Part shown: positions 21,799-22,321 of the stretch, one piece after another | Layout of the letters: every line of letters starts with the position of its first letter | Position numbering within the stretch: position 1 is the stretch's first letter | DNA from: a virus | Virus record (IMG/VR): IMGVR_UViG_3300050821_011268 | Location: 1 to 46,236 of that record | Direction: 5' to 3' (one strand) | Length of the DNA: 46,236 bases | Program-made: the position numbers and the translations under genes | The notes under the pieces: model-generated | Database searches by the model: none | Seen by the model: the letters and a program-made list of their open reading frames with translations, nothing else | Told to the model about the DNA's origin: nothing

Positions 21799-22167
21799 AT
21801 GGTAGCTTGGCAACCGGGTATGACTTTAGAGATGGCGGAAAAGGCTATCATCCTTCACGCATATGATGTGTGTTTTAAGAACCAAACGCACACCGCAACG
21901 ATGCTTGGGATCTCTGTCCGAAATCTCCACGATAAACTAAAGAAGTATGAGGAGGATGCCAGTGCAAACAAAGCGAGAGAAGAACAAAGAGCAAAACAAG
22001 TTGAAGAAGAATCTAGAAAGGCGCGCTTTGGCGCCAGTGGCAGGCCACAACTTCAATCCGATTCTGAATTCCCCAAGGAACTCCCATTGCCCGTGCGGAA
22101 GTCAGAAGAAGTTCAAAAAGTGTTGCCTGCCCAACGCTCCGCTAGTAATCAAAAAAGAATTGGTTGA
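21799..22167 (+). CDS. Fis-type (HTH_8) DNA-binding protein with a charged tail
   Basis: AEKAIILHAYDVCFKNQTHTATMLGISVRNLHDKLKKY. The last ~220 nt overlap the SEC-C ORF in another frame. Confidence 0.5.
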   Translation: MVAWQPGMTLEMAEKAIILHAYDVCFKNQTHTATMLGISVRNLHDKLKKYEEDASANKAREEQRAKQVEEESRKARFGASGRPQLQSDSEFPKELPLPVRKSEEVQKVLPAQRSASNQKRIG

Positions 22168-22321
22168 TCACATCGCCCGAGGCGGAAAGGTGAAATTCGT
22201 TGCAGACGAAGGAACTTCGAGCAGTCAAAGAAACGACGGAAGACCTAGACCGAGTGCAACGCTTGATAGAGAAAGCGTTTCGGGAACAGATATATGTTCC
22301 ACTACTTGCGGAACTCCGTGA
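21947..22321 (+). CDS. SEC-C-motif ORF overlapping both neighbours (status uncertain)
   Basis: [20 protein letters not shown] is a textbook SEC-C metal-binding motif. An in-frame GTG at 21962 lies 6 nt after GGAGG. The 3' 122 nt overlap the MuF-like gene. Confidence 0.4.
   Translation: [124 protein letters not shown]

Follow-up and report, generated by a model that had tools for sequence, protein, structure and literature searches.

The closest described counterparts of the locus studied here are the two-component spanins. In the 'overlapped' form, represented by lysB/lysC of P2, the o-spanin gene starts inside the i-spanin gene in another reading frame, while Rz/Rz1 of lambda is the embedded form; lambda, T7, and P2 all use the +1 frame, and spanins overall use both +1 and -1 (PMC6139136). 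The same spanin survey also listed 196 unannotated o-spanins (PMC6139136). The two genes discussed here, termed f0 and S, are organized alike in that the second gene has its own start inside the first, is read in another frame, and extends past the first stop. In both systems, constraint is weaker on the upstream partner, in its C-terminal part, and gene callers routinely miss the second gene. This likeness is one of gene architecture. Unlike the membrane or lipoprotein lysis proteins of the spanin systems, f0 encodes an HTH regulator and S a SEC-C zinc protein, the pair is located in the head-morphogenesis module, and its frame relation is invariantly +1.

A second point of comparison is provided by programmed frameshift genes, which in tailed phages include the tail chaperone G/GT (-1) and the capsid and tail genes of Listeria phage PSA (+1), and which are also known from prfB (+1). 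These genes contain a conserved slippery site, often together with a stop or stall codon, and their downstream frame lacks a start of its own. The f0/S pair resembles them in that two forward frames cover one stretch and keep their relation across relatives. In contrast to frameshift genes, however, it has no such site, its downstream frame is equipped with a Shine-Dalgarno (SD) sequence and a start codon, and its upstream frame remains open far beyond the junction.

At the protein level, S shares with the SEC-C domain of SecA the motif RN.PCPCGS.KK[FY]K.C[CH] and its four zinc ligands. Unlike SecA and YchJ, S is a phage protein of 60-150 aa without the SecA or YchJ (NTF2-like) body, and its motif has flanks specific to the family, with PGF.WNPL on the upstream side and A[KE].[YF]..QM.KPDLVF on the downstream side. 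Homologues of both genes are present in Bdellovibrio phage phi1422, the only cultured relative. Here, the gene order is portal gp45, gp46 (a 109-aa HTH protein annotated as 'sigma-54-dependent regulator'), and MuF gp47; gp46 is the homologue of f0 (BLASTP E = 1e-13) and occupies the same place between portal and MuF, while gp22, annotated as a hypothetical protein, is homologous to S over its whole length. However, gp46 and gp22 are 13 kb apart without any overlap, gp22 belongs to the replication module, and the gp46 tail has no open alternative frame; phi1422 thus shows the separated state. Of the two genes, the paper describing the phi1422 genome refers to the sigma-54-type regulator only (PMC3391216), and our literature search returned neither a description of an f0/S pair nor a paper combining SEC-C, phage, and MuF.

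The locus between portal and MuF

The window, i.e. the complete stretch of 46,236 nucleotides analyzed here, is a genome like that of Bdellovibrio phage phi1422. Its MuF protein is 47% identical to gp47, and a blastn search of positions 21500-23200 against GenBank phages gave no match. Close MuF homologues are also carried by contigs from metagenome-assembled genomes, and some of their bins are assigned to Bdellovibrionales and Bdellovibrio; the clade with the gene pair most likely consists of phi1422-like phages whose hosts are Bdellovibrio and similar bacteria. Pfam annotation places the overlap in a module that reads terminase, portal, (...), MuF, scaffold/protease, and capsid. The original prediction had pointed to three forward ORFs lying between portal and MuF in three overlapping frames. 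All of their coordinates and motifs were reproduced from the sequence and Pfam, including the overlaps of 221 nt (frames 1 and 2) and 122 nt (frames 2 and 3) with a +1 step each time, and both ribosome binding sites. Two details required amendment: a DUF6527 ORF of 73 aa (21565-21786), which had gone unmentioned, is also present between the portal and HTH genes, and of the two A-runs, the one at 22151-22156 was in place, whereas the other spans 22115-22119 rather than 22114-22118. A scan for promoters and terminators yielded nothing above background.

All features described below are on the + strand. The upstream gene, f0, is read in frame 1 from ATG 21799 to TGA 22167 and encodes a Fis/NtrC-type HTH_8 protein of 122 aa; a GGAG sequence at 21788..21791, read from the sequence, serves as the putative SD element 7 nt before the start. 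Residues 9-50 (21823..21948) constitute the HTH_8 DNA-binding domain, which passes PF02954 with 30.7 bits (cut-off 22) over model positions 1-42 of 42 and forms a conserved block in the f0 alignment. The domain is followed by a charged helix (21949..22032) ending in ...RKARFG, the window version of the family motif R..R..FL.R.RG. The motif is kept in f0's own frame and also in relatives without a SEC-C ORF, such as phi1422 gp46. Single-sequence AlphaFold2 (AF2) prediction of f0 placed helices over aa 10-27 and aa 40-77, followed by coil, which hints that the tail over the zinc domain could be unstructured.

Frame 2, which is +1 relative to f0, is open from 21941 and offers three possible starts: ATG 21947, ATG 21956, and GTG 21962. 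Initiation at the latter gives gene S (21962..22321, 119 aa), while the alternative start at ATG 21947 gives a 124-aa form (21947..22321). The SEC-C motif is encoded by 22076..22132, with the codons of the Cys ligands starting at 22088, 22094, 22121, and 22124; the same bases read in frame 1 give ELPLPVRKSEEVQKVLP. The four putative metal ligands, C-x-C-x8-C-[CH] at 22088-22126, are invariant in 41 aligned homologues. The original prediction held that this motif was unlikely to arise by chance, and the match is indeed far beyond chance: S passes PF02810 with 29.9 bits (cut-off 20.4) over the whole 19-position model (aa 44-62 of the 124-aa form), it is 44% identical to phi1422 gp22 across all 63 aa of the latter (pairwise E = 2e-16), and a search of 1.84 billion representative proteins yielded 376 relatives with E <= 1e-3. 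The family consensus reads PGF.WNPLL.LPRN.PCPC.SGKKFK.C[CH]L.KLP..V....A[KE].[YF]..QM.KPDLVF.T..N.E, and the S-family profile matches the C-terminal zinc domains of SecA (1ozb, 1tm6, and 1sx0) as well as YchJ (9l6b) with E = 4e-8 to 3e-7.

AF2 modelling of S from the 41-sequence alignment predicts an N-terminal helix, a zinc knuckle, and a short beta/alpha unit, with pLDDT values of 82-95 for aa 1-80 and only 56-63 for aa 81-119. A Foldseek search of this model against the PDB gave nothing significant except a 23-residue SEC-C fragment, and a PHROGs search with S gave weak motif matches only and no family for S. Among 50,697 GenBank phage records, phi1422 is the sole carrier of an S homologue. 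The number of called S-family proteins is small (about 36, vs more than 1300 MuF homologues), and the full frame-2 ORF had no match in a word-indexed search of proteins because most S genes were never called. As candidate roles, f0 may bind DNA, and S may make zinc-mediated contacts with a protein or the ribosome.

Conservation and constraint of the two frames

To recover relatives of the locus, IMG/VR had to be searched with a MuF alignment, since a single MuF sequence gave no match. This MuF-anchored scan provided 80 loci, about 70 of which have a same-strand HTH_8 ORF upstream of MuF. Both HTH_8 and SEC-C occur in 37 of them (38 with the window), and the SEC-C motif is in the +1 frame in 38/38, with f0 reading across the motif in 35. 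A separate, S-anchored scan gave the same picture: an HTH ORF accompanies S in 28 loci, with the +1 relation in every one. The latter scan also returned about six free-standing S genes, phi1422 gp22 among them, and 48 unrelated proteins with a usually C-terminal SEC-C motif, whose lengths range from roughly 190 to 820 aa and are in many cases near 300 aa. Six more loci, comprising the closest relatives L084 (MuF 52% identical) and L085 plus contigs from metagenome-assembled genomes, are likewise +1 (6/6), which brings the total to about 45 distinct sequences. None of the fetched loci with an HTH_8 ORF and SEC-C has both domains in one frame or side by side without overlap; nested ORF coordinates had suggested in-frame HTH-SEC-C proteins in some relatives, and translation ruled this out. 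In two loci (L018 and L021), the S frame is decayed. The alignment of homologous regions proposed along with the original prediction found frames 1 and 2 both conserved and open across relatives.

The two genes share 206 nt (21962..22167), in which the f0 tail coincides with the N-terminal helix and zinc domain of S. It could be argued that only the SEC-C gene is functional in this stretch and that the HTH tail is tolerated read-through. Conservation within the f0 tail fits such a view: the motifs GVH.EP, VPVPER.EVQ.VLP, and R.RGR in the f0 alignment are the frame shadow of conserved S residues, no amino acid conservation is left beyond that imposed by the S frame, and the HTH tails of S-less relatives are very variable in both sequence and length. 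Tolerated read-through would, however, be expected to run into random stops. When synonymous S codons were redrawn across a 50-codon region surrounding the motif, f0 stayed open with a median probability near 0.02 per locus, and f0 is open in all 31 distinct loci; the naive sum of log10 P across loci is -55, although the phylogenetic relatedness of the loci means that these probabilities are not independent. For calibration, MuF was read in the -1 frame in 825 windows of 50 codons, of which 41 (5%) are open, vs 92% observed for f0. The constraint is also visible in codon choice. Between codons -14 and +24 around the first Cys, a T-ending codon never precedes a codon starting with AA, AG, or GA, and the invariant Phe before Lys is encoded by TTC in 17/17 loci, while Cys codons use TGT freely where the next codon has a different start.

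The end of f0 is under similar control. In the window, the stop codon TGA (22165..22167) is formed across the S codons GTT and GAT and ends 79 nt downstream of the zinc motif start, and in 17 distinct loci including the window, f0 stops at one homologous codon boundary. The stop itself is TAA (7), TGA (6), or TAG (4), and the S dipeptides at this boundary are AK, AE, AS, AD, AR, or VS, and VD in the window; since both vary at a fixed boundary, it is the position of the f0 stop that is conserved and not its sequence, which is hard to reconcile with a merely tolerated tail. In addition, the last 10 residues of f0 carry a net charge of +2 to +4 in nearly all loci, and many S-less relatives likewise end their HTH protein in basic residues. 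We therefore consider tolerated read-through improbable. Because the tail lacks amino acid conservation of its own, any function assigned to it derives from its openness, fixed stop, and basic end, and we infer from these that the tail may be needed for its length or for a basic C-terminus.

Judged from the alignments, selection acts on f0 over the HTH domain and the charged helix and on S over the invariant zinc ligands and their flanks; within the shared bases, both frames are thus under selection, which for S is seen in these invariant residues and for f0 in the avoidance of stops, the biased codon choice, and the conserved stop position. Two further approaches were less informative. A sliding analysis of codon and hexamer likelihoods, with the window as training set, favors frame 2 at 22150-22210 and was too noisy over 90 nt for frame assignment in 21970-22140. 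Substitution typing in one close pair of loci (L036/L037), which differ by 13-14% on the left and by about 1% in MuF, was confounded by a recombination boundary.

Initiation of S and the junction with MuF

Translation of S is predicted to start just past the HTH domain. A GGAGG sequence (21951..21955) is located 6 nt upstream of GTG 21962, and its anti-SD duplex energy of -12.3 kcal/mol exceeds that of all 200 control windows, which were taken from the +1 frame of MuF. Among 33 distinct loci, the best combination of SD and start in the S frame beats at least 90% of the control windows in 24, with all of these starts -8 to +49 nt from the end of the HTH domain. The TGGAG string occurs in 11/32 S-bearing vs 0/17 S-less loci, and some loci build GGAG and ATG from the Leu-Glu and Tyr-Glu codons of KLEKYE. 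The SD enrichment is partly compositional, since SD-like strings are favored in a purine-rich stretch encoding Glu and Lys. A conserved ATG from the Tyr-Glu codons of KLEKYE was rejected, given that TAT followed by G is not commoner with S (13/32) than without (5/17), and the position of the S start is not conserved among loci. On the other hand, Met1 of phi1422 gp22 aligns about 2-3 residues after GTG 21962, free-standing S homologues share this N-terminus, and an SD-backed GTG was also picked by the gene caller in L014 (protein P0124).

Alternatively, a programmed +1 frameshift or transcriptional slippage could join the HTH and SEC-C domains, with the frame-1 product being the non-shifted form. 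The +1 direction is invariant across the family, and f0-specific conservation upstream followed by S-specific conservation downstream is what one expects of a frameshift gene. Yet, the window has no classical pair of slippery P-site and rare A-site codons, the longest homopolymer at the junction is 4 (and at most 7 in the other loci), and slippery pairs were found in only five of 33 loci, at differing offsets. There is no stop or stall codon in f0 in the relevant interval, and f0 continues in the open frame for about 50 codons past any possible shift point to a conserved stop, neither of which a frameshift model needs. Moreover, S possesses an SD and start of its own and shares its N-terminus with free-standing homologues, and HTH_8 is present in none of the approximately 36 called S-family proteins and in none of 10 long SEC-C matches. 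Two related variants were also rejected: a +1 shift at the f0 stop, since the last sense codons are not slippery, and reinitiation at a conserved Met seven codons past the f0 stop, as the window lacks this Met. The fusions by programmed frameshifting raised as an option in the original prediction, i.e. HTH-SEC-C or SEC-C-MuF, are thus not supported, as neither a conserved shift site nor an in-frame HTH-SEC-C fusion protein was found and MuF homologues begin opposite TTG 22200; we regard a frameshifted HTH-SEC-C product as unlikely. Its own SD and start, the N-terminus of gp22, the P0124 call, and the lack of both a shift site and a fusion lead us to conclude that S would initiate independently of f0.

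The frame-3 gene downstream of S is open from 22194 and encodes a MuF/SPP1 gp7-type head morphogenesis protein of 318 aa (TTG 22200..23156), preceded by a putative SD sequence, AAGGTG (22187..22192), 7 nt before the start. The protein passes Phage_Mu_F PF04233 with 50.7 bits (cut-off 29.6; E = 3.6e-13), and among its more than 1300 homologues, the best 120 are almost all 314-337 aa long with about 100% query coverage. Since the N-terminus coincides with TTG 22200 in 23 of the 25 homologues that were aligned (consensus MK..EL.PIKETTED), a SEC-C-MuF fusion is not the state of the family and MuF is, by this alignment, free-standing.

How S meets MuF differs among relatives. In 19 distinct loci with S directly before MuF, S overlaps the MuF start in 15 and abuts it in one, while f0 always ends 5-298 nt upstream of MuF. 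Since f0 never overlaps MuF and S usually does, it is S and not f0 that is the gene packed against MuF, and we infer that translation of S may be coupled to MuF in these relatives. The frequent overlap could be taken to mean that the S-MuF junction is itself functional, either by generating a +1-shifted S-MuF fusion or because the 40-codon tail of S is a selected peptide, and the S frame of the window indeed stays open 119 nt into MuF (P = 0.06 by chance, given the MuF protein). However, the overlap measures anywhere from 1 to 158 nt in relatives (median about 26), which places the 122 nt of the window near the long end, and the frame relation of S to MuF is not conserved. The confident part of the S model ends at nt 22201, where MuF begins, and homology to other S proteins stops near 22215, where P0122 reads ...LVDKISAGAKVQFVEKT and the window differs. 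The tail over the first 40 MuF codons (22200..22321) is lineage-specific and predicted to be disordered, with no homologue and low pLDDT, and MuF is free-standing in the aligned homologues. A functional S-MuF overlap is therefore very improbable, and the run of S into MuF looks like an incidental, disordered, lineage-specific tail rather than a selected feature.

Finally, a continuous HTH-SEC-C-MuF protein concealed by one or two single-base errors in the assembly, for which the two A-runs near the frame changes could be invoked, has a close to negligible probability, given a separate 1437-bp MEGAHIT contig (ENA ERZ27253653) that is 100% identical over 21745-23181, the same +1 relation in distinct sequences from different samples and dozens of unrelated metagenomes, MuF homologues of 317-325 aa that start at the residue equal to TTG 22200, and frame-2 homology, seen with P0122 and L014, that extends beyond the A-run at 22151-22156 as far as about 22215.

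An overlapping gene pair in phi1422-like phages

We consider it quite probable that f0 and S are two genuinely overlapping genes that are translated separately. Of the options in the original prediction, nested genes thus apply to frames 1 and 2, for which the +1 relation is conserved, both frames are selected, and S has its own SD and start, but not to frames 2 and 3, whose overlap looks incidental. In this arrangement, f0 and S would be translated from one late-operon mRNA, sharing about 206 nt in different frames. The f0 product would be a DNA-binding protein in which a Fis-type HTH is followed by a charged helix and a tail that is basic at its C-terminus, while S, starting on its own GTG in the +1 frame behind GGAGG and running up to and over the MuF start, would encode a small zinc-binding protein of the SecA-like SEC-C type. 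The constrained and folded part of each protein is located mainly over the low-constraint part of the other: the f0 tail falls on the zinc domain of S, and the K/E-rich N-terminal helix of S on the charged helix of f0. Selection prevents stops in f0 over the zinc domain and terminates it at the fixed codon boundary, leading to the basic C-terminus. Both proteins are probably made.

With respect to the origin of the pair, a free-standing SEC-C gene, comparable to phi1422 gp22, could have come to reside downstream of the HTH gene, whose frame was then extended over it. Given that the SEC-C domain is ancient, the new coding information would be the HTH frame extension over a pre-existing S gene, and we consider this route likely. 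One might further speculate that the overlap is a regulatory device. Ribosomes translating the HTH gene would cross the SEC-C start and the zinc domain before stopping at the fixed codon, while those translating SEC-C would run onto the MuF start, and this relay would fix the HTH : SEC-C : MuF ratio in head assembly; alternatively, a minor +1-shifted HTH-SEC-C fusion could be produced, or the HTH tail could pair with the zinc protein. We view this proposal as doubtful.

On the comparative evidence presented here, f0/S is a real, conserved, and previously unannotated out-of-frame overlapping gene pair. It is conserved across the phi1422-like clade, where standard annotation recovers one gene and overlooks the other, and as an example of dual coding in a tailed dsDNA phage it is unusually clean. 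The frame missed by gene callers encodes an ancient, recognizable zinc domain and not a de novo peptide, and selection on the f0 frame is directly visible in codon choice and in a positionally fixed stop. The pair also raises the question of which job a SecA-type zinc domain performs beside portal and MuF. As single-base changes could knock out one gene while remaining silent in the other, f0/S may offer a tractable test system.

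Genes preceding the overlap and start codon usage

Upstream of the overlapping HTH and SEC-C genes, a single ORF of 741 amino acids (19343-21568 of the window) joins the portal protein (Phage_portal_3, residues 92-431) to a C-terminal NUDIX hydrolase domain (residues 528-640). The same fusion is present in L084 and L086, the closest relatives of the window, whereas the portal gene of Bdellovibrio phage phi1422 comprises 1437 nt and encodes 478 amino acids, which makes the protein about 260 amino acids shorter than that of the window. Between the portal and HTH genes lies a DUF6527 ORF of 73 amino acids (21565-21786) carrying a CxxC pair, and its start overlaps the portal stop codon in an ATGA arrangement. 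This ORF has no counterpart in phi1422 and no PHROG match was found for it. For many late genes of the window, including those for MuF, the portal and the DUF2213 protein, the first possible start listed is TTG or GTG (22200, 19343, 23163, 28253 and others), and usage of non-ATG start codons appears to be high in this genome.

Variation of the SEC-C frame among relatives

In two related loci, L018 and L021, the SEC-C frame has decayed at about 2700-2790, where it reads LCLCVNQKKFKRRL with a stop codon upstream, and the tail of the HTH frame is still readable, ending in VPLRESKEVQEAPQKHVAKGKNR followed by the stop. Judged from these sequences, the SEC-C gene may have been lost recently and the HTH tail kept. 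Relatives share a highly conserved methionine in the SEC-C frame (..[YF]..QM.KPDLVF), seven codons past the conserved stop of the HTH frame; the window lacks this methionine. This methionine could be a structural residue only; it is also possible that it serves as a reinitiation site just 3’ of the HTH-frame stop.

In another pair of loci, L036 and L037, MuF resides within an ORF of about 660 amino acids and is therefore considerably extended at its C-terminus. Divergence between L036 and L037 is 13-14% to the left of the SEC-C zinc domain vs. about 1% in MuF, and this step is suggestive of a recombination boundary that falls within the overlap.

SEC-C domains outside the overlap

Phage proteins of a distinct group, about 300 amino acids long, are abundant in IMG/VR (L106, L117, L119-L123, L125-L127, L130-L132, L135 and others); they end in a SEC-C motif, which is attached as a tag to a protein that is unrelated in all other respects. 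In phi1422, the SEC-C homologue gp22 is a free-standing protein of 63 amino acids encoded at 5944-6135 in the replication module, and no second frame overlaps gp46, the HTH gene. By its gene arrangement, phi1422 looks like a separated state of the HTH/SEC-C gene pair.
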